This document shows, piece by piece, positions 6,907-63,249 of a DNA stretch of 64,000 nt (position 1 is its first letter; each line of letters starts with the position of its first letter). This DNA is from a virus: IMG/VR virus record IMGVR_UViG_3300017605_000342, positions 1-64,000 of that record; one strand, 5' to 3'. Position numbers and translations under genes: made by a program. The notes below the pieces were generated by a model. That model did not search any database, was not told where the DNA came from, and saw nothing but the letters and a program-made list of their open reading frames with translations.

Positions 6907-7793
6907 AGACCCACGTCACAACGGATTGGCTCTGGCAGAATTACTCGCTGTATCAATCCCGCATATTACCTCCAGTTCTACTGGAGGCACAGAGATTGTC
7001 ACCATCACATTCTCTGATCACCGCTGTATGACAGAGGCATACCAACTGCTACTGGAACTCCTAGTAACAGGGCAAAGACTATGACAGCTAGCACCATACT
7101 CGATAAAGTGTCCCAAGCAGCAGGTTGGGACACTGACTCTCAGCTAATTCTTGCGCTAAGGTTTATAGATTCTCAAACAAAAGTGGGGTTTCTCAAAGAG
7201 TGGCAACAGTTCCTAGAGCAACAGTGTGATGAAGAGAACGAACATCTCGTAAGGTTCTTAAAAAAATTCTTGGAGGAATCGTAATGTTTTATAAGAACAA
7301 ACCAGTCCACGACATGACGCTGCACGATCACTGTATCGTCGCCGCCATTCAGGGAATATCTGCGGCTGCCCCGATATATTCTGCAAACACCAAGGCTAAT
7401 GCAGAAGCTAAAGCACAGCAAGTATTAGACTTAGTGGAAGCTGTCTTTGATAAGTCAGTGACTGCTTCCGCCGCCACTAACCCTGTACCTACTAAGTAAC
7501 CCACGCAGACCCCGGTAGAGATCTGTATTATACCCCCAATTAGGAGTTTTGTCAATGGCAAAATGCATTTTCAAGGGAATTAAAATAGGTGATGTAGAAC
7601 TCACCTTGACAGCAGAGGTATATCATTGGCCGGATGAACAGAATCAGTGGCAGTTTCAGTGGGAAGCAATGGATCAGACTTTCATTGAGGCCCTAACGAA
7701 CGTGTTAACGCCTGAAGAATATCAATTAGTGATGGATGAAATTGCTAAAGATATGATTGAACAATATAAAGATAACACGGAGAAAAATGTAAG

Positions 7794-8423
7794 ATGATAC
7801 ACGTTAGAGAAGTTTCACAGGTTAAATTCCCTCTGAGGGAGAACATTAACATCAACATGATGCCGTTTATTATGGGAGATGCGCGGTCAATTCCTTGGGA
7901 ATATCGGCATTACTATCCAATGATTGAGGCATGTCGTGTACACGAGTCACAGCTAGGTAAAGTAGGATACCTGTCTATTCAAGAAAACCATGTTGAACAC
8001 AATACTAGCCAGAGGCGTGCGGGAATTCACACTGAGGGTTTTATCAACGCTGGTTGGGGTGGTGGTGGTTGGGGTGGTGGTAATGAAAAACCAAAAGTAG
8101 GTGGTTTATATCAAGGATCTACTGTTGCAAATTCCTGCCGCGTGTGGGAAACTCGTGTAGATTGTCCAGGTACGTTAGGAAACTGCGAACACCTACGATC
8201 TACGTTAGGCAGTGGGTTTTTGATGAAGCCAGATACTCTGTATTGGATGCATGATCGAGTGCCGCATGAATCTTTACCACTGAAGTTCCGCACCTACAGA
8301 CAATGGTTTCGCTTGGTAACTTCTGCTGTTGACAATTGGTATGCTGCAAATTCAACACCTAACAGACTAGGCATTGTTGCACCGTGCAACATCATTCACA
8401 AAAGTAAATTTGCGGGCGCGTAG
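7794..8423 (+). CDS. putative 2OG-Fe(II) dioxygenase-like (DSBH) protein
   Basis: RRAGIHTEG (HxE), distal PHES, RQWFRL; GWGGG repeats; stop codon lies inside the downstream tRNA. Confidence 0.5.
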   Translation: MIHVREVSQVKFPLRENININMMPFIMGDARSIPWEYRHYYPMIEACRVHESQLGKVGYLSIQENHVEHNTSQRRAGIHTEGFINAGWGGGGWGGGNEKPKVGGLYQGSTVANSCRVWETRVDCPGTLGNCEHLRSTLGSGFLMKPDTLYWMHDRVPHESLPLKFRTYRQWFRLVTSAVDNWYAANSTPNRLGIVAPCNIIHKSKFAGA

Positions 8424-8490: not shown

Positions 8491-9007
8491 TTCAGGAGAA
8501 CACCATGCCTTGGCTAACCGCCGAAGAAGCTAGAGACTGGGCTGACGATCATGGATACTACCACTACACTTGCCGAAATTGCGGGCAGTCCGGTTGGACA
8601 GATACCGTACCGGATTGTGGTTGCCGGGATCATGAAACCGAAGAGGATGAGGGGGAATGAAAACACCAAAACCTAAGATCGGTAGTTCAATGCCATATTG
8701 GTTTAACGAAGACGCTATAGTCGTAAGAGTATTTCCGTACACTGGTAGGTACCCACAGTGGTTTACGTGGGTTGTTGGGTTAACTACCAAACATGGAACA
8801 GTCATCGAAACTGTAATATGAGCCAACTTTATCGAGTCAAGTGGGAAATAGATATAGAAGATACAACGTCAGAAGGTGCTGCTGAACAAGCATTACGTAT
8901 ACAACGTGACCATGACTCAATCGCTACAGTCTTTACTGTAACAGATGAATTTAACAGAGAAGTTACCGTTGATTTATCTCAACGCTCGTTTGAAGACTAA
9001 GTTTACC

Positions 9008-9601
9008 ATGCACACACCCATTGATCCAAACGCAGTCACAGACTTTGAGCGTACTACCAGAGACTTACAACGTTTTTGGTTATTCTCAATGTTTGCGGCG
9101 GGTAAGAACTCTGACTGGGCTTCTAAAAAAGTAGAGCAATTACTAGAAGGAATGTTGGATTCCCAAATACCATTCCTCTATTTGTATGTAATGGGTGATG
9201 TGTGGTTGTGGTATAAATTGCGCAACATTAAATCAGGGCAGTACAAACGGTTGGAGCGGGCTATTACAGAGTCGCTGGCGCTAGACTTACGTCGCTGTAC
9301 TCTCGACGACCTGACTGCTATCTTTGGGGTAGGCCCCAAGACTGCCAGATTTTTCTTGGTACACTCACGTAAAGGTGCAGAACATGCTGTGTTGGATACC
9401 CACGTCCTACGGTGGATGAATTCACATGGGGTAATAGTACCCAAAACTACTCCAGGACGCCTAACATATTTGCGTTTAGAAAAAGTATGTTTAGAACTAA
9501 TGGCAAAACATTATCCCAAAGACACAGTTGCGGAGGCAGACCTTAAGATATGGAAGCACCAACGGCATCTAAAAGATTTGAACGCTATAGACCTTCTGTA
9601 G
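9008..9601 (+). CDS. HhH-GPD DNA glycosylase/AP lyase (OGG-like)
   Basis: IFGVGPKTARFFL helix-hairpin-helix with catalytic Lys, AVLDTHVLRW catalytic Asp. Confidence 0.8.
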   Translation: MHTPIDPNAVTDFERTTRDLQRFWLFSMFAAGKNSDWASKKVEQLLEGMLDSQIPFLYLYVMGDVWLWYKLRNIKSGQYKRLERAITESLALDLRRCTLDDLTAIFGVGPKTARFFLVHSRKGAEHAVLDTHVLRWMNSHGVIVPKTTPGRLTYLRLEKVCLELMAKHYPKDTVAEADLKIWKHQRHLKDLNAIDLL

Positions 9602-11300: not shown

Positions 11301-11759
11301 ATGATCCTTCAAAAAGCAATTCCCATGAATGCAAGGGGCATTTTTTATGCCACTAAAGACCACCTGTTGGAACAGAACGAAGCAGCGTTCTTGGAGCACA
11401 TGAATAACACGTGTGCCTATCATATAGAAGAAGGCGGTAAACTTCTGGCTTGCGCCATTGGGTTTAGAATACCTAACGCTCTATACAAAGAAGAGTTCGA
11501 AGAAAGAAATGTAATTGATCTAGTAGATGCAGAAATTGAACTACAGTTCTTACGACCTACTGACATGGATGTTGAAGAAGGGAACATCTTCTTGGAGGCG
11601 TTACAGTCTTTGCACGATAGAGTAGACGTTGAAAACTGGCCAAAGGCTTTTGCCATATTAGAAAATTGGTGGTTTCCCAACGAACACTCTATACCGGATA
11701 TGTGGTCTTTACCGTTAGAATTTTCTCATCTATTGAAAGATAGGGCGGTGGATGCATGA
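11301..11759 (+). CDS. hypothetical acidic protein
   Basis: GAGG RBS before ATG 11301; upstream in-frame extension overlaps the tRNA-like RNA. Confidence 0.6.
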   Translation: MILQKAIPMNARGIFYATKDHLLEQNEAAFLEHMNNTCAYHIEEGGKLLACAIGFRIPNALYKEEFEERNVIDLVDAEIELQFLRPTDMDVEEGNIFLEALQSLHDRVDVENWPKAFAILENWWFPNEHSIPDMWSLPLEFSHLLKDRAVDA

Positions 11760-12529
11760 TCCCAGAAGAAATACTACAATCAGACGAGGGTATATCTAAG
11801 TGGTCAATTGTTGTAGCTAAGCGTGGTAGTCAAGCCGATGGTACAGCCACCGCCGCATCAGACACTGACTTGATTTCTATCTGTGTACCGCCAAAGAAAT
11901 ACTACTTAGGTCTATCACAGTATGGCAGTGATGGTTCTAAAGAAGTAAAACAATTTGAGGGATGGGATATAGTTGTGTATGAGTTACACAAGCTTATGCG
12001 GTTGCTTAAAGGTGCTAACCCAAACGTAATGCCGCTGCTATTTCTCGAAGACTTCATGTATGTCCGTAACAGCGAGGCAATGCGGGCGCTGGTAGATCAC
12101 CGCGACCTGTTCATCTCAAAGCAATGCTACGCACCGTTTGTTGGTATGGGCAGAGGCCAACTAACACGCATGACAGTATGGGAAAGCACTCGCAAGCTGG
12201 GCGAGAAGCGTAAGAAACTTGTGGAAACCTACGGCTATGATACCCACAATGCAGCCAGCTTAATCAAAACTGTGCGTCAAGGCATCGAGTTGTTAAACAC
12301 TGGTAGAATGTTTCTTGATAGACGTAGCATAGATGCACAAGAAATTACAGATATCAAACGTGGCAAGTGGAGCATGGAAAAGATTAAAACTGAAGCTGAC
12401 AGCTTGTTTGAACGGGCAAAAGAAGCACTAGAAAAATCACCACTACCAGAGAACGTTGACTTTGATAAGATCAATGACCTGACAGTGAAGCTTGTTCAGG
12501 TTGCTTGGAAAGGACGCGACGAACGGTAA
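11756..12529 (+). CDS. Pol-beta superfamily nucleotidyltransferase (RlaP/YcgL-like)
   Basis: RGSQA.G....SDTDL, DIVVYEL, NPN, YGYDT, L.TG, IKRGK motifs. Confidence 0.85.
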   Translation: MIPEEILQSDEGISKWSIVVAKRGSQADGTATAASDTDLISICVPPKKYYLGLSQYGSDGSKEVKQFEGWDIVVYELHKLMRLLKGANPNVMPLLFLEDFMYVRNSEAMRALVDHRDLFISKQCYAPFVGMGRGQLTRMTVWESTRKLGEKRKKLVETYGYDTHNAASLIKTVRQGIELLNTGRMFLDRRSIDAQEITDIKRGKWSMEKIKTEADSLFERAKEALEKSPLPENVDFDKINDLTVKLVQVAWKGRDER

Positions 12530-12969: not shown

Positions 12970-13621
12970 CACCAGAACTTGTGATGACATTGATTGTGTT
13001 AGCCGTCATGCTCATAGGCTGCGTCTTGGTATACCTAGTCACATGATTCAAATTAATTGGGAACGCGGCAAGCAGAAACACGCTGTCATCGTTAACACAC
13101 AAGTACAGTCGGATGTAGAATACGTAGCAATAGAGCTAGGGTTAACCAAGTACTGGTTGTCTTATCCTAAAAAGATAAATGACATTCTAATAATTAAAGA
13201 TTACAGTTTGTTGTGCCCAGAAGGAAATATATTCTACGGCCCCAAAGGGGAGGTTCCTCACATGACAGTAGCTGATGCATACGCCCTTATTGCAGATAAG
13301 AAGGGTAGGTTTTTCACGGTAACATTCCGTAGAAAGACCGCGAAGTTTGAAGTAATCAACGGTAAACGTACCAAAGTTGCAGACAAAGGTGACTTGCGCA
13401 CCATGCTGTGTCGTCGTGGTGTAAAGCAATTCACCAACACGGCGCTTGGCTTTAAAGGTAAGGTCAAGAATACTGATTGGGAAGACTTGCGTAATGACAC
13501 TCTCACTGTGTTTGATGTTGGATTGTATAATGCTTACAGGGCGGGCGGCCTGCGGGCAGTTACTGCCGGTCGTAGAGCCTACCGCAAAATCAACCTGCGA
13601 GAAATTGTATCAGTGTCATGA
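12944..13621 (+). CDS. hypothetical protein; C-terminal SH3-like phage domain with its own internal start at 13262
   Basis: FFTVTFRRK..GDLRTM.CR.GV..VFD..YRKINL; GGGGAGG RBS before internal ATG. Confidence 0.55.
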   Translation: MYVSRPQSNTRTCDDIDCVSRHAHRLRLGIPSHMIQINWERGKQKHAVIVNTQVQSDVEYVAIELGLTKYWLSYPKKINDILIIKDYSLLCPEGNIFYGPKGEVPHMTVADAYALIADKKGRFFTVTFRRKTAKFEVINGKRTKVADKGDLRTMLCRRGVKQFTNTALGFKGKVKNTDWEDLRNDTLTVFDVGLYNAYRAGGLRAVTAGRRAYRKINLREIVSVS

Positions 13622-14295
13622 CCACTGAGCAAGAAAAGCTGGTACTGGAAAACCAGCACCTTATCCCCAAAATCGTGGGAAGATGCCTCCGTCTTATCGG
13701 CGGAGGTATCGCCTTGCACGCCGAAGATCTAGTCTCCGAAGGTTACCTAGCCCTAATAGAAGCAGCGAAAAAGTATGACTCTACCAAAGACGTTTCGTTT
13801 AAATATCTCACCAACCTCCTTGTTCCTTACCGTATCATTGACTACTTACGTCGAATAGATGCTCTCACCAAACTAGAAAGAAAACTCTTAAAGAAAGATC
13901 TTGCAACACGGCAAGTAACAGCTAAAAGTAAAAGCCTACAACTTAGAGAACCTGGGTGGGTAGAACAATTACCTGTAGGTAGGTTATCGCTGAACGATGC
14001 ACAACGTACAGAAAAGGTTGTTGTGTGGGAAAAAATAGATACCCATACCCCAGAGATTGATGTTAATCGCAAAGAAGCTTTGCACCTAATCAAAAGCTTG
14101 GGGTTAAAGTATCTAGGTAAAAGAAACTTAGAGATCTTGCTGGATTTGTACATCAAAGAAGATCCTGCTGTAGATCTTGCAAAGAAGCATGACGTTAATG
14201 AGTCCTACATATCTCAAGTCAAAACCAAAAATCTAGCTGTATTAAAGAAACAATTGGCACGACGTGGATATTCCCAATTGAACCATCTACTATGA
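13618..14295 (+). CDS. RNA polymerase sigma-70 family factor (FliA/WhiG-like)
   Basis: EDLVSEGYLALIEAAKKYD region 2, IIDYLRRID, C-terminal region 4 HTH LAKKHDVNESYISQ. Confidence 0.88.
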   Translation: MTTEQEKLVLENQHLIPKIVGRCLRLIGGGIALHAEDLVSEGYLALIEAAKKYDSTKDVSFKYLTNLLVPYRIIDYLRRIDALTKLERKLLKKDLATRQVTAKSKSLQLREPGWVEQLPVGRLSLNDAQRTEKVVVWEKIDTHTPEIDVNRKEALHLIKSLGLKYLGKRNLEILLDLYIKEDPAVDLAKKHDVNESYISQVKTKNLAVLKKQLARRGYSQLNHLL

Positions 14296-14302
14296 GGGCA
14301 TA

Positions 14303-15424
14303 ATGTACCTACCTACGCTCTACAAAAGAGCAACAACTGGAGCAATCCAGCAATGGACTATCGAAGTTGACGGTGACAAATACCGTACAATCGCGGGCCA
14401 ACGTGGTGGTCAATTAACCACTACCGAATGGACTGACTGTGAAGGTAAGAACGTTGGGCGGTCTAATGAAACAACGCCTGCCGAACAATCCCTAGCTGAA
14501 GCTAAAGCTAAATGGAAAAAGAAATCTGAAAAGGGGTACGTTGAAAACATCCAGAAAGTAGACGACTCCGGGTTCATGCAGGTTATGCTGGCACAGAACT
14601 ACGAAGACCGCGTTGAAGAGATTGATTTTACCAACGATGGGGCTGTAGTCAGTCCTAAGTTAGACGGTATACGCTGTGTGGTTGACAATAAAGGCATGTG
14701 GTCACGTGAGGGGAAATCTTTACTGGCAGGTAGCCCACATATCTTTAGAGCCTTGAAACCATTCTTAGATAGCTATCCACAACTGACAGATGGTGAGCTA
14801 TACAATCACCAATTCAAAGATAATTTCAATAAGATAGTTTCCTTAATCAAAAAACAAAAACCTACGCCAGAAGAACTCGAAGAGTCAGAGAGACTAGTGC
14901 AATACTGGATCTTTGATTGCGTGGAAGATAACCTGTCTTGGTTTGTGCGCTTTATTAACAACAGTGAACTACGTAAGTATATAACAAAGCACCCATGTAT
15001 AAAGATGGTTATAAATCATTCCGTGGCATCGCCCAAAGACGTTGATGACGCTTTTAAGAAATATCGTAGAGAAGGGTTTGAGGGTGCTATGGTTAGATGG
15101 GGTATCCACAACATAGGGTATGACCACAAACGTAGTAAGTATCTCTTGAAGTACAAGGATTTTGTCACAGATGAATTCGAGATTGTCGATGTTCTTACCG
15201 GGCGTGGTAACAAGGCAGACAAAGCAGCCAAGATTAAATGCAGGGATAAGCGCGGAGTCACCTTCGAAGCTAACATTGAGGGTGACTGGGATTTTTGTAC
15301 ACAACTGTTGGCCGACAAGAGCCAGGTGATAGGCAAACAAGGTACAGTTAGATACCAGAATCTAACACCAGACGAACAGGTGCCACGCATTGGGTACCTG
15401 ATTGCGATCAGAGACTATGAGTAA
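14303..15424 (+). CDS. ATP-dependent DNA ligase with N-terminal WGR-like extension
   Basis: SPKLDGIRC, DGELY, FD, EGAMVR, KRS..LLKYK, OB domain. Confidence 0.93.
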   Translation: MYLPTLYKRATTGAIQQWTIEVDGDKYRTIAGQRGGQLTTTEWTDCEGKNVGRSNETTPAEQSLAEAKAKWKKKSEKGYVENIQKVDDSGFMQVMLAQNYEDRVEEIDFTNDGAVVSPKLDGIRCVVDNKGMWSREGKSLLAGSPHIFRALKPFLDSYPQLTDGELYNHQFKDNFNKIVSLIKKQKPTPEELEESERLVQYWIFDCVEDNLSWFVRFINNSELRKYITKHPCIKMVINHSVASPKDVDDAFKKYRREGFEGAMVRWGIHNIGYDHKRSKYLLKYKDFVTDEFEIVDVLTGRGNKADKAAKIKCRDKRGVTFEANIEGDWDFCTQLLADKSQVIGKQGTVRYQNLTPDEQVPRIGYLIAIRDYE

Positions 15425-15622
15425 AACCAGAACATACTACAAACACTCTCAGTTAGTGTTAGTAGAGTTTAATAATACTTGTCCATTTGTTGAAAAGTTT
15501 GTAAGTAACGAACCCATAACCATAGATAGAGTTGCAGAGTTTATTGATGAGCGCGATGGCTTTGATGAAGGACGTGACGCTATCACGTTTGTTGATGACC
15601 TAGACGACGGAGGGACAGAGTT

Positions 15623-15802
15623 ATGAAACTAACAATAACATTTAAAGATCCAGATGCAGTAGACCAAGCATTGAGTAGCTTAGATGAGTTTGATGAAGAA
15701 AAAGCTTCTCTAGCAATCTACAACTGGGTGAAGTACGGAGAGTACCTGTCGGTTGTTATAGATACTGATACTGGAGAATGTACCCCAGTGAGGGCACAAT
15801 GA
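15623..15802 (+). CDS. small hypothetical protein (below the ORF-track cut-off)
   Basis: MKLTITFKDPD...WVKYGEYLSVVIDT; ATGA overlaps at both ends. Confidence 0.6.
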   Translation: MKLTITFKDPDAVDQALSSLDEFDEEKASLAIYNWVKYGEYLSVVIDTDTGECTPVRAQ

Positions 15803-16024
15803 AACTACGAAAACTCAATGATTTAATCTTGGAGTGCGGTGAAGTTAAAAGATATAAGCCAGGTAACTTGGCTTCTATTTTAGAAGACCGTCTTGCTGAC
15901 CTATTTGTACATGGTACTATTGATTCTATTGAAGAGTTGATTGAGTTAGTGGTAAATGACGTAAGAGCAGACAATGCTCGGGGTGGTGCTATACCCTACA
16001 TGAACGAGAAGTCACTAAGAGAAT

Positions 16025-16627
16025 ATGCGAGTCCTTGTTGCTTGTGAGTTCTCTGGGGTAGTGCGGAATGCTTTCAGGGCGCGTGGTCATGATGCTTGGT
16101 CTTGCGATTTACTGCCTGCCTCTGACAATTCCAACTACCACATAGAAACGGATATAATCCACGTCCTTACAGCACGTCCTTGGGATTTAATGATAGCCCA
16201 CCCACCCTGCACATACCTCACAAACGCGGGGGTATGTCATTTACACACAGACAAGGATCGTTGGAAAAAGATGGAAGCTGGTGCTAAGTTTTTTAAATCC
16301 TTGCTTAATGCGCCAATTCCCCACATTGCAGTAGAAAACCCCATCATGCATAAATACGCTGTAAATATTATAGGTCGCCGACAAGACCAAGTTATACAGC
16401 CGTGGATGTTCGGACACAAGGAACAAAAAGCCACTTGCTTATGGTTAAAAGGCGTCCCAAAATTAGTGCCAACAAAAGACGTACGCAAAGCAATGATGCA
16501 ATTACCCAAAGCGCAGAGAGAACGTGTGCACTGGTTACCGCCTAGCAAGGACAGGTGGAAACTACGCAGCATAACCTATTATGGCATTGCGGAAGCAATG
16601 GCCCAACAGTGGGGAGGTTTAGCATGA
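16025..16627 (+). CDS. phage DNA cytosine methyltransferase-like protein
   Basis: VLVACEFSG, HPPCT, ENP, QPWMFG, GIAEAMAQQWG. Confidence 0.8.
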   Translation: MRVLVACEFSGVVRNAFRARGHDAWSCDLLPASDNSNYHIETDIIHVLTARPWDLMIAHPPCTYLTNAGVCHLHTDKDRWKKMEAGAKFFKSLLNAPIPHIAVENPIMHKYAVNIIGRRQDQVIQPWMFGHKEQKATCLWLKGVPKLVPTKDVRKAMMQLPKAQRERVHWLPPSKDRWKLRSITYYGIAEAMAQQWGGLA

Positions 16628-17466
16628 AAATCTACAAAGATCCTAGCCGTGGTACGGGAGAACGTAGATTCTTTTATCATTGGTTTAAACAAAAGCAGGC
16701 ATGGTCAGTGCATTTTGCCAACGCATGCCACGTAGTAAATGACATTCACTGTTTTGTACCATGTGAAACCAAGAGACGGAAGACTCAACCCAAAGCAGTA
16801 ATGCAGGGTTGGGCACACGAAGTCAAAATTAAAAACGGCGTTGCGCAAATCATATGATGCTCAAGTGGGTCGTTGAATTTTATGTACATGATACGTGGGT
16901 TTCAGATGGCTTCGAGTTAGATGACGAACGGGCGCTGGACATGCTGTCTAACGATCTTGCATACGCTATACCCGGTGTAGAGTTAGAAGCTAAAGTTATC
17001 AAAAAACCTAATCCGAAAGTGATTGCCAAACTACAGGGGTTTAGCAATGGGAATGATTGAATGCTTTATGCGCAAAGTACCTGACAGCCAAACAGCCGTC
17101 AAGTACATGAACACTGTGGCCCGCAACATTGATAGGAATGAGAGTGAGAAAGAAGGCTATGAGGTACGCACCCTCAAACCAGAAGATTTTGATTGGGCGT
17201 GGGATGCACAAGACAATCTAAAAAAAGAAGCTGACATAAGAGAAAAATATAAGTTGCTGACTGACCAAGGGCGTGTTATATTTGTGGAGATAGACTGGTG
17301 AGAACTTTCTCAGGCCACATGACACGGTGGGGATCACTGGCTAGCTTGGCTACGTGTATTAAAGTATCAATTACAGCAGCGATAGCACACGAACCAAGCC
17401 CAAGAGCTGTACTGTATTTAGTATTGTCTGGAATTCTTTGGTGGTTTGCATGGGAGGCTGACCGTT

Positions 17467-18858
17467 ATGGCCCTTAAATCCTACGATCACGGCACACAGC
17501 CGTTTCCTGCAACGTATGATGTTGTTAAAATACACACGTTGCAGATGACAAACATGGGAGAAGGTAACAATAAGTTTTACAATATTGAATTACAGAGATC
17601 AGGCAGCCAATACAGAATATATACTTCGTACGGACGTACAGGTGCTGCCTATGTAAAAAACGAAGACAGGTTCCCGTCAGAGTACAATGCAGATTCAGAG
17701 TACCAATCCATTCTTAGTTCAAAGCTAAAGAAGGGATACCGGGAAGTCAAAGTCGCAACTGCAAAGCACGCATCGGCTGTAGGTCAATCACAGATTCTGT
17801 CACAAGATTTCGCAAAGCCTGCCACAGTACCTAGCACAACTGCCAGTGCTGTTACCACAGACTCTCGTATCATTCCGTTAATCGAGCGGCTATATGCAGA
17901 GGCAGGGCAGGGCTGTCAGTCACAGTTGCACGGCTCACTTAAAACATCAGCGGACAACCCACTAGGTACACTAACCCTCGGGCAGATTGACGCCGGCAAG
18001 CAAGTGTTAAACGAAGTTAATGCGTGGTTAGTTGCAAACCCGCACGAAGTTAATAAACTACACGCTAAAATTATTAGCTGGACAAATGACTTTTACTCTG
18101 CAATACCACAGCAGATCCCGCTGCGTCCAAAAGATCCGGTTGGCCGCGAGCAATACCTTAAGCAGTATTGTTTGAACCGTCCAGAAATCTTGGACGAAAA
18201 GTATGACTTACTAGATCTTCTGGCCAAGGTAGATGACATGAAGATTGGGTTCCACTCCAATGACATTGACAAGAAGTACGAAGAAACCAACACTGTCTAT
18301 GCGCCAGCCACGGCACAAGAAACAGAATATGCAAAGACTTACATGGTCAATTCACAGTCTAAGCACCACAATTGGAACCTAGTACCTGTCAGGGTGTGGT
18401 CAGTAGCCTCACGTGCACAGAAAAACAACTTGACTTACATGCAACCAATTGGTAATATCCAACGGTTGTTTCATGGCACTGGTGCCCAGAACGTTTTGGG
18501 TATTTGCCGTAAAGGCTTCTTGTTGAAGCCTGCTGGTGTTTACGTTTCCGGTAAGATGTTTGGTGAGGGTACATACTTTGCAGACCAGTCTACTAAATCT
18601 TCACAGTATGCCACTGGCCGTTTCGGTGGCTATGCGTCACACCACGGCGATACATCATTTATGTTCATCGTAGACGTGGCGTTGGGACGTATCAAAGAAT
18701 ATGAAAACAGTCAATGGAATCTTGTCAAGCCTCCAGCAGGATTTGACTCCGTAAAAGGTGTGAAGGGTTCTTCACTGTTGCACAACGAATTCATTGTATA
18801 TTCTGAAAAGCAAAATGTAATCACCCTACTAATAGAGTTCAAACAAACATACAGATGA
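17467..18858 (+). CDS. poly(ADP-ribose) polymerase: WGR + helical regulatory + ART catalytic domain
   Basis: NNKFYNIEL..YGRTG..KLKKGY; PLGTLT..QI, FYSAIP; LFHGT, GKMFGEGTYFAD..KSSQY, VALG, DSVKG, LLHNEFIVY (H-Y-E triad). Confidence 0.92.
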   Translation: MALKSYDHGTQPFPATYDVVKIHTLQMTNMGEGNNKFYNIELQRSGSQYRIYTSYGRTGAAYVKNEDRFPSEYNADSEYQSILSSKLKKGYREVKVATAKHASAVGQSQILSQDFAKPATVPSTTASAVTTDSRIIPLIERLYAEAGQGCQSQLHGSLKTSADNPLGTLTLGQIDAGKQVLNEVNAWLVANPHEVNKLHAKIISWTNDFYSAIPQQIPLRPKDPVGREQYLKQYCLNRPEILDEKYDLLDLLAKVDDMKIGFHSNDIDKKYEETNTVYAPATAQETEYAKTYMVNSQSKHHNWNLVPVRVWSVASRAQKNNLTYMQPIGNIQRLFHGTGAQNVLGICRKGFLLKPAGVYVSGKMFGEGTYFADQSTKSSQYATGRFGGYASHHGDTSFMFIVDVALGRIKEYENSQWNLVKPPAGFDSVKGVKGSSLLHNEFIVYSEKQNVITLLIEFKQTYR

Positions 18859-19129
18859 TTATCAACGAAGATCACATCCTGAAGACCATAGCCGAAGAGT
18901 TACAACGTATTGCTGACCAATATGAAATCAAGGTGTTGTGGCCGCCGACACCAACGCCTAATGACCCGTGGGCAAGGGGCAAGAACAGACGTAATCTAGC
19001 ATGTTACATTGTAGATTACATTAACCACGAACAAGAGCGACATGGTAAAACCTTTGTTGTAGATGATACAATGATTCTTGATGCCATCGCTGCTTACAAG
19101 TCTATCAATGAATTAACAATGGTAGTTAT

Positions 19130-19657
19130 ATGAAACTCTCACACGTTAAATCTCGCGTACATGTACCGGATGACTTTGATTATTTACGATCACGTAAAGC
19201 AATACATCCTAGCTGTCCCACTGCTGACAACGACTATTGTGAGTGCACGCTAGATCAAGGTACATTTGGGGAAAGCAAACCAGCACGGTGGTTAGCTGAC
19301 CAATTATCAACCCCAGAACATCTACGCCATATTCGTAGTGTGTCTGCACTGCTGGAAAAATATAATCGTAGGCTTAACATTCTAGAAAACATGTTTCGTA
19401 GAGAACACCTGGCAATTGTATGGGGTGTTGGGTCAGCGTACGAACGCCCTATACAGAAACATTTCCACGAACTTGCGGTGGTGGTGGTGAAAGCCTTAAA
19501 GAAGGAAACATCTACCAAAGTGTTCAGCCACGAGTGGCCTCAAAAAATTAAAGACTGTGTTAATAATCTTGTAACGGCAAAAACAAATAAGCTGTTAAAA
19601 ACTCTGGTAGACTGGAGGCGTCGTGGAAAGATCGACATTTCGGACTGCGGTTTTTGA
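19130..19657 (+). CDS. hypothetical protein
   Basis: 175 aa ORF, ATGA-coupled. Confidence 0.55.
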   Translation: MKLSHVKSRVHVPDDFDYLRSRKAIHPSCPTADNDYCECTLDQGTFGESKPARWLADQLSTPEHLRHIRSVSALLEKYNRRLNILENMFRREHLAIVWGVGSAYERPIQKHFHELAVVVVKALKKETSTKVFSHEWPQKIKDCVNNLVTAKTNKLLKTLVDWRRRGKIDISDCGF

Positions 19658-20621
19658 GCGTGATAATGGGGCATGTGTGGTGTGTGGTCAACCAGCACAA
19701 GACGCACACCACATCCTAGAACGTCGTTTGTGGAACGACGGTGGGTACCACTTAGATAACGGTGCCAGTCTGTGTGGCCCGCATCACCTAGATGCTGAGT
19801 CCACGATTATCTCGGTAGAAGATTTGCGCCTCAAGTGTGGTATTACTCGCAAAGTTATACCGGAACATATGTATGATGACGAGGTATATGACAAGTGGGG
19901 CAACTGCGTACTGCCTAACGGGCAGCGTACAAAGGGAGAATTGTTCAATGACGAGTCTGTTCAAAAGGTGCTGGCTCCCGTATTACATCTGTTCACTGAT
20001 CGTGTTAAGTATCCTCGTACATACCATCTTCCATTTTCACGTAATATTACAGATGATGACCGTGTTATTAGCGATCTTAACATATTTTGTGGGAAACAGG
20101 TTGTTATAACAGAAAAGATGGATGGCGAGAACACCACCATGTACCGTGACGCAATACATGCCCGCTCCATAGACTCTGGAGCACACCCATCACGAACATG
20201 GGTGAAGCAATTTTGGGCACAGATCAAGCACGATATCCCGCCAGGTTGGCGTATCTGTGGTGAGAATGTTTACGCAAAGCATTCCATATATTACGAAGAT
20301 CTTAAGAGTTACTTCTATGGATTTTCTATCTGGGATAGTAACAACCTGTGTTTGGACTGGCATGATACTCTAGTGTGGTTTCAGCTATTTGGTATAGAGC
20401 CTGTACCCACATTATATTTAGGGCTTTATGACCAACAAGTTCTTGATGATCTTACTAATCGAGATTGGAAAACATCAGAGGGCTATGTTGTACGTTTAGA
20501 TAGTGTGTTTTCATATAGGAATTTTAGAGACAGTGTTGCAAAGTATGTGAGAGAGAAGCATGTCCAAACAGTAAAGCACTGGATGCATGGGCAACCAGTA
20601 ATACCAAATAAACTACTCTAG
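19623..20621 (+). CDS. HNH domain fused to Rnl2-family RNA ligase
   Basis: RD..CVVC..DAHH..N..SLC..HH; KYPRTYHLP, TEKMDGEN, GEN, EGYVVR, KYVR. Confidence 0.85.
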   Translation: MERSTFRTAVFERDNGACVVCGQPAQDAHHILERRLWNDGGYHLDNGASLCGPHHLDAESTIISVEDLRLKCGITRKVIPEHMYDDEVYDKWGNCVLPNGQRTKGELFNDESVQKVLAPVLHLFTDRVKYPRTYHLPFSRNITDDDRVISDLNIFCGKQVVITEKMDGENTTMYRDAIHARSIDSGAHPSRTWVKQFWAQIKHDIPPGWRICGENVYAKHSIYYEDLKSYFYGFSIWDSNNLCLDWHDTLVWFQLFGIEPVPTLYLGLYDQQVLDDLTNRDWKTSEGYVVRLDSVFSYRNFRDSVAKYVREKHVQTVKHWMHGQPVIPNKLL

Positions 20622-20631
20622 GAGTTTAACC

Positions 20632-21321
20632 ATGTCCGCTATCGGAGCCATTCTTTCTGGAACTACCACCATCCGCGAAGCCATAAAGAAGTACATTGAC
20701 GCACTTCCTGTAGGCAGCGACTTCACTGTAAAAGAAATCACTGACCACATTCGTACCAATGTTAACAACAGAACCATTACTATCAACAGCATTCCCGTCA
20801 ATGATGCCCTGTCACAACGTTTCTATGCTCAAGACGGAACGTTTGAACGTCAGACAATTCATTACAGCGTTGTGCGTGATGTTTTCTTGGCGCTGTTGAA
20901 CAGCGAACTTTCTGGAACACCCTATGTTATAGATCCTACCGGTATGTTTAAGATCTATACCAAAACCACAAGCCCAAGTACGGGTTTGAATCTTCCTCTA
21001 ACAACCCCATTGGGAACGGTTGTGGCTGCGGCCCCGGCCCCCGCGCCTGCACCGCCAGTTGCACCACGGCCTCAAGTAGCAGTGAAATCGTTGGCTGAAA
21101 AAATTCTAGATGGTACTATCACCCACACATATAGAGTTGAGCTTAATGGCCAAACTCTTACGTTGGGTGGAGAATCTCAGTTCTTTTCAAAAGCTGACGC
21201 TGAGTCTGCCGTTAAGGACAAGCTATCTACCGTGCTTGTTACCAGCACGAAAAAGCTTCGTAGAGAAATCAGGTCACTAGTTAGTTCCGGCAAGTTGATC
21301 TTTAGACGCGAACGAATCTAA
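20632..21321 (+). CDS. hypothetical two-domain protein with Pro/Ala linker
   Basis: AGGAG RBS; AAAPAPAPAPP linker. Confidence 0.6.
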   Translation: MSAIGAILSGTTTIREAIKKYIDALPVGSDFTVKEITDHIRTNVNNRTITINSIPVNDALSQRFYAQDGTFERQTIHYSVVRDVFLALLNSELSGTPYVIDPTGMFKIYTKTTSPSTGLNLPLTTPLGTVVAAAPAPAPAPPVAPRPQVAVKSLAEKILDGTITHTYRVELNGQTLTLGGESQFFSKADAESAVKDKLSTVLVTSTKKLRREIRSLVSSGKLIFRRERI

Positions 21322-21530
21322 TGACCCCCAACGACAGGATTCAGACTGCCCTCGATACCATCCTGCAATATGGTGGTATCGATGGTGGTCACCACAAGCA
21401 GTGGGTTTTAGACCAAGTAGTACAGCAACTGCTAGGTCACAAAGAAGCATATAAGGCTTGGATAAAAAGCTATGAAGGTGGTGAAGATGGTCCCAAAACT
21501 TACGAGTGGGATAAGGGCATAGCCCCGTAG
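21321..21530 (+). CDS. conserved-type small phage protein
   Basis: YGGIDGGHHKQWVLDQ...YEWDKGIAP. Confidence 0.65.
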   Translation: MTPNDRIQTALDTILQYGGIDGGHHKQWVLDQVVQQLLGHKEAYKAWIKSYEGGEDGPKTYEWDKGIAP

Positions 21531-21853
21531 GAGGCACACATGGAACAACATTGTATAGTCAAGGACTGTAAGAACGTTAGCATTGATATGATTTTTTATA
21601 ACGGTATCTGTGCACAATGCTATATGTATCTAACACAGGGCATCGGTGATGGCCAAGTTTATCGTAACTTGGTTAAAATGTTATTGAAAAGACTGTTTAA
21701 CTATCTAAAACAAGTAGATGAAACATTTGACGAAGAGCTACCGGAACCAACAACACCGGAACCTTCTGTCAATCCAGCACCACCAGTATCAGATCAACAT
21801 GCACTAGCTTTCAAAGAAGTATTACCCGGAGGTCGAATCAACGATATTAACCC

Positions 21854-23320
21854 ATGAGCTATTACGGAATTGTCGTCCAACTGGACGGGGTGCGCAAGCA
21901 CCCCGGAGCGGATCGTCTGCAACTTGCTAACTGTTTGGGTAACCAAGTGGTGGTAGGATTGGAGGCACGCGACGGGGATGTTACTGCGTTCTTTCCTGTT
22001 GACGGAAAACTATCAGAAGATTTTTTGAATGCAAACAACCTGTTACCTGTACTTGATGCCCAAGGTAAGCGTATTGGTGGAGGATTCTTTGATGTTAAAG
22101 GTAGAGTTCGCGCTCAAAAATTCAGAGGCGAACGTAGCGAAGGTTTTGCAATCCCGGTTGACGCACTTACGTACACAGGTTATTCAATTGCCAAGCTTAA
22201 GGTCGGCGATCAGATTACGGAACTTAATGGTCACCAAGTTTGCACCAAATACATTAACGAAAAAACTATCAGGGCACAAAAGGAAGCTTCACTTAGAGCA
22301 GCCAAAGTTAAAGTACTAAACTTCCCAGAGCATGTGGACACCGAACAATTCCGGTTTGTAGCGAAGGATATCCCTGCCGGATCATTGGTGTACATCTCTG
22401 CAAAAGAACATGGTACTTCACAGAGATACGCACACACGTTGATGACACGTAATTGGGCACAAGCTCATGTCATTAAGGTAGTGCCGCCACTGAAGTCTTT
22501 GCTGCGTAAGACACCGTTAAGAAAGTATGCTAACGAAGTATGTCGGCGACTTAACAATGTTCTGATCAAGCTAACTTCTAGACATTGTTTTACTATCAAG
22601 CCTAAGTACATACATGCTATTGGTACGCGGCGTACTGTGTTGGATCAGAATTCAAGCACGTCGTTCTATCAGTTAGAACATGGGTCAGAACAGTTTCGTT
22701 ACAATGTTATGCGTGGGGTTGTTTTGCGTAAGGGAGAAATCCTTTACGGTGAAGTTGTGGGCTGGGTATTGCCAGACAAGCCGATTATGTCCCAGTCAAT
22801 TTCAAAAGAAATTAAAAAGTCTTTCGATAAAATCTTCTCACAGCAATACCCTGGTGACCAGATGATTTACAAGTATGGCGTCCCCAACGGTGGTGCTGAA
22901 TTCCACGTGTACCGTATTGCCCACGTTAATGAAGACGGTAACATGGTTGACTTGCCGTGGACCCAAGTCGTACGTCGTTGTAAAGAACTGGGATTGAAGA
23001 CTGTTCAGTTAATGAACTTGAATTACTCCAAAGTGCAAGATGGAGTATTTCCGGTTATAACATACAACTATCAAAACCCATTTATCTACGACGGCAATGT
23101 ACGAGACTTACAGGAATTGGTTAATAGTCTGTTAGAAAAGCCCGCCATCTCAGATCCGTCACACATTGAAGAGGGCGTTGTGCTGCGTGTAGAACAGCCT
23201 GACGGTGAGATCAAATACATCAAGCAAAAGAGCTTTGCCTTCGGGGTCCTAGAAGGTTACGCAAAGCTTGACGAAAATTATGTTGACACTGAAGAAGCAG
23301 CCAGTGCCGAATCTGCTTGA
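21854..23320 (+). CDS. RNA ligase, DRB0094/Rnl5-like, with N-terminal tRNA-binding OB fold
   Basis: KHPGADRLQL, FRGERSEG; motif I KEHGTS, YGE, EGVVLR, KQKS. Confidence 0.8.
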   Translation: MSYYGIVVQLDGVRKHPGADRLQLANCLGNQVVVGLEARDGDVTAFFPVDGKLSEDFLNANNLLPVLDAQGKRIGGGFFDVKGRVRAQKFRGERSEGFAIPVDALTYTGYSIAKLKVGDQITELNGHQVCTKYINEKTIRAQKEASLRAAKVKVLNFPEHVDTEQFRFVAKDIPAGSLVYISAKEHGTSQRYAHTLMTRNWAQAHVIKVVPPLKSLLRKTPLRKYANEVCRRLNNVLIKLTSRHCFTIKPKYIHAIGTRRTVLDQNSSTSFYQLEHGSEQFRYNVMRGVVLRKGEILYGEVVGWVLPDKPIMSQSISKEIKKSFDKIFSQQYPGDQMIYKYGVPNGGAEFHVYRIAHVNEDGNMVDLPWTQVVRRCKELGLKTVQLMNLNYSKVQDGVFPVITYNYQNPFIYDGNVRDLQELVNSLLEKPAISDPSHIEEGVVLRVEQPDGEIKYIKQKSFAFGVLEGYAKLDENYVDTEEAASAESA

Positions 23321-23345
23321 TTTTCTAACAACTTTGTGGTAGTCT
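23317..23345 (+). promoter_or_regulatory. sigma70-type promoter with extended -10
   Basis: TTGATT-17 nt-TAGTCT with TG at -15/-14, then AGGAG RBS of ORF 23358. Confidence 0.6.
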
Positions 23346-23357
23346 TTAGGAGATCAT

Positions 23358-23579
23358 ATGGAACGTACTTATGAAGTAAAAGTTTATAGAGTAGAACTAA
23401 TATGTGATGCGTGCGGTCAAGGAACAATGAAGCCAACCGGAACCATGATCGGCGGTTGGCCTCCCAAGTTTCCACATCAGTGTACAGAATGTTTAACCAT
23501 TAACAGTTATTTATTAGAACAATACCCAAGAACAGTATATAAAAAGATACCCAATCAACCAGAGGAAATCACAAAATGA
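23358..23579 (+). CDS. zinc-ribbon protein
   Basis: CDAC...HQCTEC; AGGAG RBS. Confidence 0.6.
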   Translation: MERTYEVKVYRVELICDACGQGTMKPTGTMIGGWPPKFPHQCTECLTINSYLLEQYPRTVYKKIPNQPEEITK

Positions 23580-24394
23580 AGAAAGTGCATCTAATTACCA
23601 TCGATGGACAGAATGACTTCTGCTCCTTCAGTAACAAGCGTGGTGCATTGTATGTCGGAGCAGACGCATCTGCGGCTGAGGCTGACATTAAGCGGTTGGC
23701 CAACTTCGTTACCAAAGTTGGTGACCGCCTAACAATGATCCACAGCACGTTGGACTCACATCACCCACAACACATTGCCCACGCCATTATGTGGACAAAC
23801 TCTAAGGGTGAGCAACCGCCAATTTTCAACCCGATCTTCAAGGCAGATGTTGAGTCGGGCAAGTGGTTTGCACACAACCCACGCCTGCGTGCTGCATTCC
23901 AGAACTATGTAAACGAACTGGAAAAACACAACCGTTATGTCTTGGTCATTTGGCCTCAGCATTGTATCATTGGCTCGTGGGGCCACGCGCTGTACCCGGA
24001 ACTGTCAGATGCATTTATCGAATGGCAGAACCGTTACCACAAGCGTATTAACTACGTTGCTAAAGGCAGCAACATGTTGACCGAACATTACTCCGCTGTG
24101 CAGGCTGACGTGCCGGACGATGCTGATCCGACCACCAAGCTGAACACACAGTTGATTGACTTGCTGGCAAAGAACGCTGACGAAATCCTGATCACTGGTC
24201 AGGCACTGTCCCATTGCGTTGCCAACACAATCACGGACATCGCCAATAACTTTGGCGAAGAGAACATTAAGAAGTTTACATTACTAGAAGATACTTGCTC
24301 TAATGTTCCTACCTTTGAAAAGCTAGGACAAGACTTCGTTAAAGATATGACTAAGCGTGGAATGCGCACTACCACTACATCTAACTGGAGCTAA
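23576..24394 (+). CDS. nicotinamidase/isochorismatase-family cysteine hydrolase
   Basis: DGQNDF, DSH, WPQHC, KG...EHYSA, GQALSHCV (Asp-Lys-Cys triad and metal ligands). Confidence 0.85.
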   Translation: MKKVHLITIDGQNDFCSFSNKRGALYVGADASAAEADIKRLANFVTKVGDRLTMIHSTLDSHHPQHIAHAIMWTNSKGEQPPIFNPIFKADVESGKWFAHNPRLRAAFQNYVNELEKHNRYVLVIWPQHCIIGSWGHALYPELSDAFIEWQNRYHKRINYVAKGSNMLTEHYSAVQADVPDDADPTTKLNTQLIDLLAKNADEILITGQALSHCVANTITDIANNFGEENIKKFTLLEDTCSNVPTFEKLGQDFVKDMTKRGMRTTTTSNWS

Positions 24395-24395
24395 C

Positions 24396-25145
24396 ATGAA
24401 TTCGGTAGATTTGAACGACGGTCTAGCACAGTTTAATACAACCTCAAACTACAAGTTTTCTGCAATACCTGTAGACCAGGTTGGTGCTTCTGAAATCACG
24501 TTGGTGACTCTGGTCACTGACGTTAGTGGCTCTGTTATTGATTTTGCAAAACGTATTGAAGAGATGCTTAAGACTGTGGTAAAATCCTGTCAGTCTCCGA
24601 AATGTCCACGTGCTGACAACCTGATGTTTCGGTTGATTGACTTTGCAGATTATGTTACAGAACTGCATGGGTTCAAGCCTGTGGAGTCCATCAAAGGTGA
24701 TGCCTACAATGGAATTATCCAAATCAAAGGGTCAACCGCCCTCTTCGATGCAGTTGCGCAGGCTGTCGAAGCTACTACAAAGTATGGCAAAGAATTATAC
24801 GATCAGGATTTTACTCCCAACGCCATTATCTTCATCATCACCGATGGAGAAAACAATCGACCTCCAATGGACGCCTCTGTTGTTGCAAAGGCCATTGGTG
24901 AAGCCCGAAAGTCAGAAGCTTTGGTGTCGATCACAACGGTCTTGATCGGTGTCACGGATAATTCTGCGTCCTTGTCACAGTACTTACAAGAGTTCAAGGA
25001 CACAGCAAAGATCGATCAGTACATTGACATTGGCAGTGCTACACCCGGCAAGCTGGCGAAGCTCGCTGACTTTGTGAGTAAGTCTGTGAGTTCTACATCA
25101 CAGGCTATTACAACTGGTGCGGCTTCTGCTCCATTAACATTCTAA
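24396..25145 (+). CDS. vWA domain protein (TerY-like)
   Basis: MIDAS DVSGS, GSTALFDA, IITDGENN. Confidence 0.85.
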   Translation: MNSVDLNDGLAQFNTTSNYKFSAIPVDQVGASEITLVTLVTDVSGSVIDFAKRIEEMLKTVVKSCQSPKCPRADNLMFRLIDFADYVTELHGFKPVESIKGDAYNGIIQIKGSTALFDAVAQAVEATTKYGKELYDQDFTPNAIIFIITDGENNRPPMDASVVAKAIGEARKSEALVSITTVLIGVTDNSASLSQYLQEFKDTAKIDQYIDIGSATPGKLAKLADFVSKSVSSTSQAITTGAASAPLTF

Positions 25146-31449: not shown

Positions 31450-31761
31450 ATGAACTTTAATTTGGCAGTAGGTGTAGCACAAAAAGACTCAGGCATCGCG
31501 GCTGCAAAAGCAGCCAGGGTACAGCTTGTTAAGTTGGCGCGTGAGGTTGCCAAAGCCACAGCAGCAGAGAGAGAACTTCGACTCGTCACGATAGACGATG
31601 TATATCGTGTACTTGCCATGAAAGGCCATGACGTTAGCCAGCTAGGAAATGCTGCTGGGTCAGTGTTCAAAGAATCGTGTTGGGAATTTGTCGGATGGAG
31701 GCCATCTGAACGAGTCAGTAACCATGCAAGACCTGTTCGAATCTGGAAATATGCAAACTAA
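31450..31761 (+). CDS. hypothetical protein (possible wHTH)
   Basis: GAGG RBS; VTIDDV..GNAAGSVF..HAR..W. Confidence 0.6.
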   Translation: MNFNLAVGVAQKDSGIAAAKAARVQLVKLAREVAKATAAERELRLVTIDDVYRVLAMKGHDVSQLGNAAGSVFKESCWEFVGWRPSERVSNHARPVRIWKYAN

Positions 31762-33044: not shown

Positions 33045-33046
33045 GA

Positions 33047-59627: not shown

Positions 59628-60089
59628 ATGATTACAGAATTTAGGGGCAAATACGCTAAGTTCTCAAACTTCTACGATTGCCCTGTAGAGTGGGAAGGCA
59701 GACACTACCCCACCACAGAGCACGCATTCGCGGCTGCCAAGACAACGGACTTGATCGAAGAAGAGGCTATCCGTACAGCACCCACACCGGGAGAAGCCAA
59801 AAAGCTTGGACGTTTGGTGGTACACAAGCGTACAGACTGGGGCAAAATAAAACCCGTCATTATGTTAGGGCTATTGCGCATCAAGTTCTCTAAAGAGCCA
59901 TTCAAATCGTTACTGCTATCTACAGGTGACGAAGAGATCTGTGAAGGCAACTGGTGGCACGATAACTATTGGGGCAACTGTACTTGTGACGGATGTAGTC
60001 ACATAGACGGACATAACACACTAGGCAAAACACTAATGCTAATTAGGAAAGAGTTACAACTTACATCATGGATGAAATCTCTCAGCTAA
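59628..60089 (+). CDS. NADAR (YbiA-like) family protein
   Basis: FSNFY, TTEHAF.A.K, AKKLGR, KF, LLSTG, EGN.W.D.YWG, G.N.LGK.LM.IR. Confidence 0.9.
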   Translation: MITEFRGKYAKFSNFYDCPVEWEGRHYPTTEHAFAAAKTTDLIEEEAIRTAPTPGEAKKLGRLVVHKRTDWGKIKPVIMLGLLRIKFSKEPFKSLLLSTGDEEICEGNWWHDNYWGNCTCDGCSHIDGHNTLGKTLMLIRKELQLTSWMKSLS

Positions 60090-62444: not shown

Positions 62445-62803
62445 AAAAATTATTTTTGTTACTGCTGTTAGTATTACCCAAAAATTCATTTAGTCAATGC
62501 AATTTGATGGCTGATGGTGGTATTCAAGCATTTGTAAAGTGGAACACTGCATTGACGTTTAGCTGGGTCCCTCCCGAAAATACGTCAGGACTACTGTATT
62601 ACAGGATACGCAGGGCAAGCACAATCTCTGGAACTTACACCGTTATAGCGACAATCCCATTTGACAGAAACAGCTACAACATAGTATGGAAGGGTGGAGA
62701 TTACCACTACTTTGTCACGTCATGGTATTCAATCATGGAAAATGGTGTCTCTGTTATCAGAGAATCTGTCGGTTCTAACCAAGTACGCGTAAGGACACGG
62801 TAA
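62441..62803 (+). CDS. secreted FN3-like beta-sandwich protein
   Basis: signal peptide MKKLFLLLLLVLP; LTFSW.PP..YYRIRR..YHYFVTS..ES..SN. Confidence 0.55.
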   Translation: MKKLFLLLLLVLPKNSFSQCNLMADGGIQAFVKWNTALTFSWVPPENTSGLLYYRIRRASTISGTYTVIATIPFDRNSYNIVWKGGDYHYFVTSWYSIMENGVSVIRESVGSNQVRVRTR

Positions 62804-63249
62804 TGATCACAGTCATTCAAGGTAATATCTGGGATTACCATGCACAAGGGCATTACATTACAGTTACTACAAACTGCAATCGGAAAGCCAACGGTCACGT
62901 AGTTATGGGTAAGGGTATTGCGTTGGAGGCCAAACAGCGCTTTCCAGATATCCCTCGAAAGCTGGGAGAGGTCGCAGACCTACGCTCTGTCGTGGTGTTC
63001 CCCGATGAACGGATTATCACGTTCCCAACCAAGATGAACTGGTATGAGAATTCAACCATAGAGCTAATATCATCCAGCTTCGCACAACTTATCATAGCGG
63101 CTGAACGGCTGTTACCCTTACGCAAGAAGCCTATATACTGTGTAAAATTTGGCTGTGCTAACGGACGACTCTCATGGGAAAAAGATGTACGTCCCTTCCT
63201 AGAGCCGTTCATAGATGAAAAGGAATTTGTATTTGTAGACCGCTCATGA
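62803..63249 (+). CDS. macrodomain (DarG-like ADP-ribose hydrolase)
   Basis: GNIWD, TTNC, VMGKGIA..KQRFP, ITFPTK..W, FGCANG.L.W. Confidence 0.85.
   Translation: MITVIQGNIWDYHAQGHYITVTTNCNRKANGHVVMGKGIALEAKQRFPDIPRKLGEVADLRSVVVFPDERIITFPTKMNWYENSTIELISSSFAQLIIAAERLLPLRKKPIYCVKFGCANGRLSWEKDVRPFLEPFIDEKEFVFVDRS

Follow-up and report, generated by a model that had tools for sequence, protein, structure and literature searches.

The first 64,000 nucleotides (64 kb, hereafter the window) of the virus record IMGVR_UViG_3300017605_000342, a linear IMG/VR contig (160,874 bp; 77% complete according to CheckV), include a gene encoding a poly(ADP-ribose) polymerase (PARP; gene P0001, 17467..18858, + strand, 463 amino acids plus a stop codon at 18856-18858). 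It is a real, intact and conserved PARP with a WGR domain, a helical regulatory domain (HD) and an ADP-ribosyltransferase (ART) catalytic domain, present in a large uncultured phage. That phages carry PARPs is already known; what is new is a large separate clade of these enzymes which keeps a small downstream partner gene. On balance, we favour the interpretation that the protein is a break-activated, NAD+-dependent ADP-ribosyltransferase of the DNA-dependent PARP type, which would act with this partner in the management of breaks during infection.

The three domains exceed the Pfam gathering scores used as cut-offs: the WGR domain (17536..17751, + strand, residues 24-95; PF05406, 49.6 bits against a cut-off of 22, E 4.3e-13); the helical regulatory domain (PARP_reg; 17872..18285, + strand, residues ~136-273; PF02877 at residues 163-253, 33.9 bits against 26.8, E 3.8e-8); and the ART catalytic domain (18322..18855, + strand, residues 286-463; PF00644 at residues 286-433, 90.7 bits against 26.7, E 1.2e-25). 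The initial annotation of the gene had named these domains together with an intact H-Y-E triad, and the analysis bore this out (H336, Y370, E441); the strings it had quoted are all present in the protein (SYGRTG, 54-59; NPLGTLTLGQI, 164-174; FYSAIP, 209-214). None of the zinc fingers or BRCT domains of the PARP1-type architecture was found: the protein begins 23 residues before the WGR domain, with no further Pfam domain, and this N-terminal extension is conserved and structured. The description of the protein as PARP2/3-like holds for the layout, which is that of PARP2/3 or of bacterial PARPs, but the scores do not single out one human PARP: PARP1 is the top match of the whole protein (87.9 bits, compared to 75 for PARP2), and PARP3 that of the WGR domain alone.

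A sequence search of the PDB placed the WGR-HD-ART region of human PARP1 at the top (E 7.7e-24, residues 24-432), followed by PARP2 (~5e-20) and then by PARP3, PARP4 and the tankyrases. The PARP1 alignment pairs LFHGT with LWHGS, GTYFAD with GIYFAD and LLHNEFIVY with LLYNEYIVY (phage/human), and because of these pairings H336, Y370 and E441, invariant across 76 homologues, are assigned as the H-Y-E triad. Seven ART residues (H336, G337, Y370, K377, S378, Y381 and E441) correspond by alignment to PARP1 H862, G863, Y896, K903, S904, Y907 and E988, and all of them are invariant in the clade alignment; in the 76-sequence set Y381 is also invariant, and G337 and K377 are nearly so. M364 lies opposite PARP1 M890, the equivalents of M890 and K903 being both kept. 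The ART fold, with the triad and the nicotinamide-site residues S378 and Y381, is present, aligned and conserved. An AlphaFold2 model built on the alignment of the 76 homologues (mean predicted local distance difference test, pLDDT, 90; predicted template-modelling score, pTM, 0.84) matched in Foldseek the break-bound WGR-HD-ART region of PARP1 (4dqy_C, template-modelling score, TM, 0.72/0.73) and PARP2 (6x0l; PARP2-nucleosome complexes), with E values from 1e-27 to 1e-29. The initial annotation had held that a structure model lacking the ART fold would speak against a PARP; the fold is there, and it superposes on PARP1 and PARP2. The HD appears in the model as a helical bundle (helices at residues 136-154, 171-190, 200-212, 224-234 and 239-273), whose core leucines L181 and L236 are conserved.

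The DNA-binding side of the protein is preserved in part. The YGR motif (residues 55-57) is invariant in the clade, G56 and R57 being nearly invariant in the 76-sequence set, and the WGR domain, whose closest solved structure is the PARP3 WGR domain (2eoc), includes an NNKFY motif of the PARP2/3 type. The idea that YGR is a special variant was not sustained, since tyrosine is the commonest first motif residue among bacterial PARPs (PMC5966428). Among the DNA-contact residues of PARP2 defined by Obaji et al. (PMC6294510), K130, Y132, R153 and K183 are kept (K36, Y38, R57 and K86 in the phage protein), and W151 is replaced by an aromatic residue, Y55. Conservation at this level makes both DNA binding and catalysis plausible. 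The reading frame itself is preceded by a Shine-Dalgarno sequence (GGGAGG, 17450..17455, + strand), seen by direct sequence reading 9 nucleotides 5' of the ATG at 17467; an alternative TTG start at 17446 was judged less likely. The gene and its start at ATG 17467 are real, and the boundaries originally assigned are likely those of the gene.

The phage protein belongs to a clade of more than 100 sequence clusters (43-71% identity) in a collection of 5.8 billion proteins, carried by contigs of up to 250 kb, many of them of 200-250 kb; an exhaustive profile search gave 3,373 representatives at E <= 1e-3. The phylogeny proposed in the initial annotation was run as a quick FastTree of 154 sequences, midpoint-rooted, with most rows unnamed and without named human PARP1, PARP2 and PARP3. 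In this tree the 24 sampled clade members are monophyletic (support 100), the three cultured-phage PARPs fall on a different major branch (support 99), and the clade joins Armatimonadota and amoebozoan PARPs (support 95). Given the kind of tree, the grouping with these organisms is reported, but only the separateness of the clade is relied on. The nearest bacterial sequences (Armatimonadota, Bacillota) are 29-34% identical.

A PARP in a phage is less of a surprise than had been claimed. Genes annotated as "poly(ADP-ribose) polymerase" exist in GenBank for phages XacN1, Xoo-sp13, FBKp34 and phi4:1; PHROG 23333 (a phage 'polymerase', meaning PARP) matches residues 26-459 with positions 10-383 of its 383-position profile (E 3.5e-39); Perina et al. 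2014 listed PARPs in Aeromonas phage Aeh1 and Cellulophaga phage phi4:1 (PMC4245714); and Iyer et al. 2021 commented on jumbo-phage PARPs (PMC7824862). Relatives in known phages are nonetheless distant: tblastn matched 22 phage records, full-length matches being below 30% identity, and the BFVD gave only a few full-length viral look-alikes. A megablast search of window positions 14000-24000 against 50,697 phage records returned zero matches, so that its nucleotide sequence has no close counterpart among cultured phages. The phage origin of the contig was upheld: nearly all the window genes are on the + strand, and they include genes for polynucleotide kinase, primase-helicase, helicase, UvsX, ribonucleotide reductase, a sigma factor, an ATP-dependent DNA ligase, a DNA methyltransferase and two RNA ligases.

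The most constant neighbour of the PARP gene in the clade is the partner gene, represented in the window by an open reading frame (ORF) of 229 amino acids (20632..21321, + strand) whose N-terminal domain is winged-helix-like. Related loci (given L numbers below) were located with the 24-sequence clade alignment, and all + strand ORFs within 2.5 kb of PARP were clustered in 35 loci. The partner family lies downstream of PARP, on the same strand and 4-1,900 nucleotides away, in 13 of the 14 clade loci; its alignment has the core FSAHDVTKxLR ... HxxVR ... GYxR, and a profile made without the window protein matches ORF 20632-21321 at E 3.8e-6. Three genes separate PARP from the partner in the window (two small ORFs and an HNH-RNA ligase), which we read as insertions. 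Nine Armatimonadota loci have a gene of ~230 amino acids located 31-1,570 nucleotides after PARP and related to the partner family by hhalign (probability 88.6%, E 2.6e-6). A Pfam search of the partner family found no matching family. The model of the partner has a pLDDT of 64 overall and of 77-94 over most of residues 10-111; this N-terminal domain gave modest VIA-align Z scores of 5.3-6.7, mostly to winged-helix domains, and nothing in Foldseek at E <= 0.001. Prediction of a complex between PARP and the partner N-terminal domain gave a median score of 0.00, which counts neither for nor against. Taken as a whole, functional coupling of PARP to the partner is reasonably probable.

According to the interpretation favoured here, the WGR domain would bind a DNA strand break, by analogy with PARP1-3 and with HaPARP of Herpetosiphon aurantiacus; binding would loosen the autoinhibitory HD and open the NAD+ site; and the enzyme would then attach ADP-ribose, perhaps as short chains, to itself and to targets close by. 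The winged-helix-like protein encoded downstream probably works alongside PARP, possibly as its substrate, as a targeting factor or as a cofactor, and during infection PARP would mark or manage breaks in the DNA of the phage or of the host. Bacterial PARPs of the WGR-HD-ART layout are DNA-stimulated formers of poly(ADP-ribose) (PAR) in vitro (PMC8120803, PMC5966428). The parts of this interpretation differ in strength: the gene product is very probably an active enzyme; its dependence on DNA breaks is somewhat probable; a polymer and mono-ADP-ribose have even chances as its product; and a role in repair or break management is suggested tentatively. All of the roles originally predicted for it are plausible, from break-dependent signals and protection of the genome to takeover of the host and draw-down of NAD.

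The surrounding genes point to a setting of nucleic-acid repair or of an ADP-ribose cycle. PARP lies inside a repair/replication region with a DNA ligase, two RNA ligases, RlaP, a polynucleotide kinase and UvsX. The ATP-dependent DNA ligase (14303..15424, + strand; PHROG 114, E 4e-60; Pfam PF01068) is located 2 kb upstream of PARP. Downstream are an HNH endonuclease fused to an RNA ligase (19623..20621, + strand; PHROG 24030, E 8.7e-134; Pfam PF09414) and a second RNA ligase (21854..23320, + strand; PHROG 968, E 9.9e-52; Pfam PF09414). The fused ORF, with the HNH motif at its N-terminus (residues 1-60) and the RNA ligase domain at residues 159-309, matches PHROG 24030 end to end. Together with a polynucleotide kinase (1855-2733) and an RlaP nucleotidyltransferase (11756-12529), the two ligases make up an RNA-repair kit in the window. 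A helix-hairpin-helix protein encoded at 8945-9601 (+ strand) is a possible further repair gene, its 8-oxoguanine DNA glycosylase match being sub-threshold (23.6 bits against a cut-off of 27). A WGR-like N-terminus suspected by eye in the first 95 residues of the DNA ligase was dropped, as it had no Pfam match at E <= 10 and no BLASTP match to the PARP WGR domain. The small ORFs 17023-17301, 18855-19133 and 19130-19657 were likewise dropped as parts of a conserved PARP unit, having no Pfam or PHROG match and no PARP-adjacent homologue in relatives. A promoter/terminator scan of 13000-24000 was uninformative, since promoter-like sites were fewer than in shuffled sequence.

Some of these repair genes recur near other PARPs: a DNA ligase in the window, L003 and phi4:1, a very distant phage; RlaP in the window, L003 and FBKp34; and a CCA-adding or poly(A) polymerase in L002 and phi4:1. 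These associations are suggestive, not statistical. Cellulophaga phage phi4:1 (L041, 5229-10303) has the order CCA-adding/poly(A) polymerase, PARP, hypothetical, DNA ligase, DNA methylase, which parallels the DNA ligase, methyltransferase and PARP of the window, yet the two PARPs are 22% identical. The eukaryotic Pelomyxa schiedti protein P0131 (KAH3762714.1, 1025 amino acids) is an RNA_ligase (PF09414)-BRCT-WGR-HD-PARP fusion; as its ligase is of the same Pfam family as the two RNA ligases of the window, it gives a Rosetta-stone-type hint of PARP-ligase coupling. A closer kinship of a window RNA ligase with the fusion was rejected, the Pfam family being common to both and pairwise similarity being absent. 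Other neighbours were also noted. An rIIA-like gene (~700 amino acids, HATPase_c_3) and rIIB lie upstream of PARP in L012, L013, L014, L036 and L037, directly or with one small gene between; in L006 the gene immediately before the PARP orthologue is a T4 endonuclease V-like one for pyrimidine-dimer excision (7549-8043, weak Pfam match). Genes for vWA, PP2C phosphatase and Ser/Thr-kinase-like proteins (24357-25145, 31649-32572 and 33032-34729 in the window) form a run that is conserved downstream of PARP and the nicotinamidase-like gene in L005-L008. A vWA-domain protein is also encoded directly after PARP in XacN1 (L039, 7282-7932); its match to 24357-25145 is a short, motif-level one (E 5e-4), and orthology was not supported.

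Genes related to NAD and ADP-ribose are present in the window as well. A nicotinamidase-like (PncA/Pnc1-type) hydrolase (23576..24394, + strand; Pfam Isochorismatase, 27.3 bits against a cut-off of 27) is syntenic with PARP in L005-L008; its five best solved matches are all nicotinamidases, with the DxQNDF, WPxHC and HCV motifs aligned, and its match to the NCBIfam PncA model (E 3.9e-12) is under the cut-off of that model. Such an enzyme could clear nicotinamide, the inhibitory product released by PARP. Far from PARP (41 kb) is a NADAR-domain protein (59628..60089, + strand; PF08719, 84.1 bits, above cut-off; PHROG 1017), a candidate hydrolase of base-linked ADP-ribose (family activity: PMC11543638, PMC11125620), and near it, 44 kb from PARP, a DarG/TARG1-like macrodomain protein of 148 amino acids (62803..63249, + strand). 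The Pfam Macro search missed this divergent macrodomain, which was recovered with a profile made from genes neighbouring PARP in relatives. Queried alone, it matches DarG macrodomains (5m31, 5m3i) at E ~2e-6, its FPTKMNW aligning with DarG FPTKKHW so that the catalytic Lys and the Trp are kept (PMC5179494); the family profile matches DarG 5m3i at 3e-29 and OARD1/TARG1 at 7e-19. Related macrodomains are within ~3 kb of PARP in 8 loci (L002, L005, L006, L007, L015, L035, one Armatimonadota and Klebsiella phage FBKp34). A cREC_REC-like small protein is encoded two genes before NADAR in the window (58850-59293), and its homologue in L002 (6095-6505) two genes before the macrodomain that precedes PARP. 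In other relatives, a NADAR gene immediately follows PARP (L037), NAMPT and NUDIX genes lie within ~6 kb upstream (L002), or NAPRTase lies ~7-9 kb downstream (L005, L008); PF04095 was present in 5 of 9 PARP-bearing IMG/VR records. Neither NAPRTase nor RtcB was found in the 160,874 bp (~77% of the phage) that all genome-wide searches covered.

Several observations weigh against the favoured interpretation. In the WGR domain, PARP2 N127 is replaced by Gly (Gly also in PARP1), Q159 is lost, and no position of the phage protein could be assigned to Y201, which reads the 5'-phosphate. In the ART domain, the segment from SVKG to the catalytic NE (the pre-Glu loop, through which the PARP4 and tankyrase alignments extend) is ~30 residues shorter than that of PARP1, and the PARP1 Y986 position is His. 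An H-Y-E triad does not guarantee polymers, PARP3 and PARP4 carrying H-Y-E and being described as mono-transferases. Phage repair and early genes cluster anyway, and neighbourhoods other than the partner differ widely among loci: in the 9 PARP-bearing IMG/VR records, NADAR was present in one, Pfam-level Macro in none and ATP DNA ligase in three, never adjacent. The PARP-adjacent macrodomains of relatives have Gln at the position of the DarG/TARG1 catalytic Lys. No PARG, ARH, NAMPT or NUDIX was found in the record (PF10021, of DUF2263 type, PF05028 and ARH gave no match); as the record is only ~77% complete, the rest of the phage genome may still encode them. The NADAR and DarG-like macrodomain genes, 41-45 kb off, could just counter DNA ADP-ribosylation by DarT-type toxins of the host (PMC11125620). 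Finally, a literature search found no paper reporting a biochemical or genetic test of a phage PARP.

Three other explanations were weighed. We consider it unlikely that the protein is a host-takeover effector whose WGR domain merely tethers the enzyme to DNA. This would agree with the proposal of Iyer et al. that PARPs of phages have the same kind of action as the T4 ARTs, except that they attach chains (PMC7824862), with the location of PARP in an early/middle-type region adjoining a phage sigma factor (in L003 a sigma-like gene directly precedes PARP), and with the sub-clade in which rIIA and rIIB are just upstream, at most one small gene between. However, a full autoinhibitory HD plus a WGR domain argues for ligand-gated and not constitutive activity, the fold of the conserved partner appears to be of a nucleic-acid-binding type and not that of a host mimic, and related PARPs with the same partner occur on bacterial chromosomes, where takeover would be senseless. 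A rather improbable alternative is that the enzyme modifies nucleic acids, ADP-ribosylating phosphorylated DNA or RNA termini and so capping breaks, to be processed afterwards by ligases and by hydrolases of the macrodomain or NADAR kind. PARP1-3 are able to ADP-ribosylate such termini in vitro. PARP2 is reported to act on DNA besides proteins (PMC8190142), PARP adjoins the DNA and RNA ligases, RlaP and the polynucleotide kinase, and DarG/TARG1-like macrodomains and NADAR, families of nucleic-acid ADP-ribose hydrolases, recur beside PARP orthologues; the RNA-ligase-PARP fusion of Pelomyxa points the same way. Set against this, most complete PARP-bearing relatives have no erasers at the Pfam level, and NADAR and DarG-like genes are common as stand-alone phage counter-defences (PMC11125620).

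Very improbable, in our estimation, is an enzyme mainly depleting host NAD+, or a DNA-end binder with no meaningful transferase output. The NAMPT, NAPRTase and nicotinamidase-like genes near many orthologues are those expected under heavy NAD+ use, but salvage genes may be mere counter-defence; the clade shows no variation at any NAD+-binding or catalytic residue, an argument for catalysis on targets; a gated, break-dependent enzyme would be a poor bulk NADase; and depletion would harm the ribonucleotide reductase and the ligase-dependent replication of the phage itself. The preferred reading, break-activated ADP-ribosylation with the partner, can also be extended. In this doubtful extension, PARP and the winged-helix-like partner, joined in many relatives by a TARG1/DarG-like macrodomain or NADAR next to them, would form a portable module for break-sensing, reversible ADP-ribosylation, common to jumbo phages and Armatimonadota; the partner would be substrate-directing or DNA-targeting, loosely like a PARP accessory factor, and the targets would perhaps be DNA or RNA ends and not only proteins. 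The clade is large and clearly under selection, and its conserved partner gene is present in both phages and bacteria. If the enzyme is break-activated, ADP-ribose signalling of the DNA-damage type would operate in phage infection; this would also be relevant to the old debate on whether eukaryotic PARPs come from prokaryotes or viruses.

Among the closest known systems are HaPARP and CdPARP (Clostridioides difficile CD160), which are likewise compact WGR-HD-ART proteins of ~420-470 amino acids; like the phage protein they have the H-Y-E triad and a Y/W/F-G-R motif, usually with Tyr, and lack zinc fingers and BRCT, and both auto-PARylate in vitro with activated DNA (PMC8120803, PMC5966428). 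They differ in being bacterial, whereas the phage protein sits in a large phage genome, and in being paired with a DUF2263-type PARG, of which there is no gene in the 160,874 bp of the phage record. Human PARP2/PARP3 and the PARP1 core have the same three domains and fold (TM ~0.7 to break-bound PARP1 and PARP2), but identity is ~20-25%, and the phage protein has Tyr for the WGR Trp, Gly for PARP2 N127, a much shorter pre-Glu loop and His for PARP1 Y986; in contrast to human PARP2/3, it lacks a disordered basic N-terminus and has the structured extension of 23 residues. The annotated phage PARPs (phi4:1 gp031, XacN1 ORF414 BBA65562.1 and FBKp34 gp111) have the same architecture and belong to the same PHROG 23333, and in phi4:1, as in the window, genes for a DNA ligase and a DNA methylase lie near PARP; they differ in their identity of 22-28%, in their separate branch (support 99) and in that the partner family was not detected alongside any of the three. 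T4 Alt, ModA and ModB are also phage-encoded NAD+-dependent ARTs, but of the cholera-toxin-like R-S-E class and without WGR or HD (PMC8120803). The contrast with these enzymes drawn in the initial annotation stands: the triad of the phage PARP is the diphtheria-toxin/PARP-like H-Y-E, and its best matches are only PARP families.

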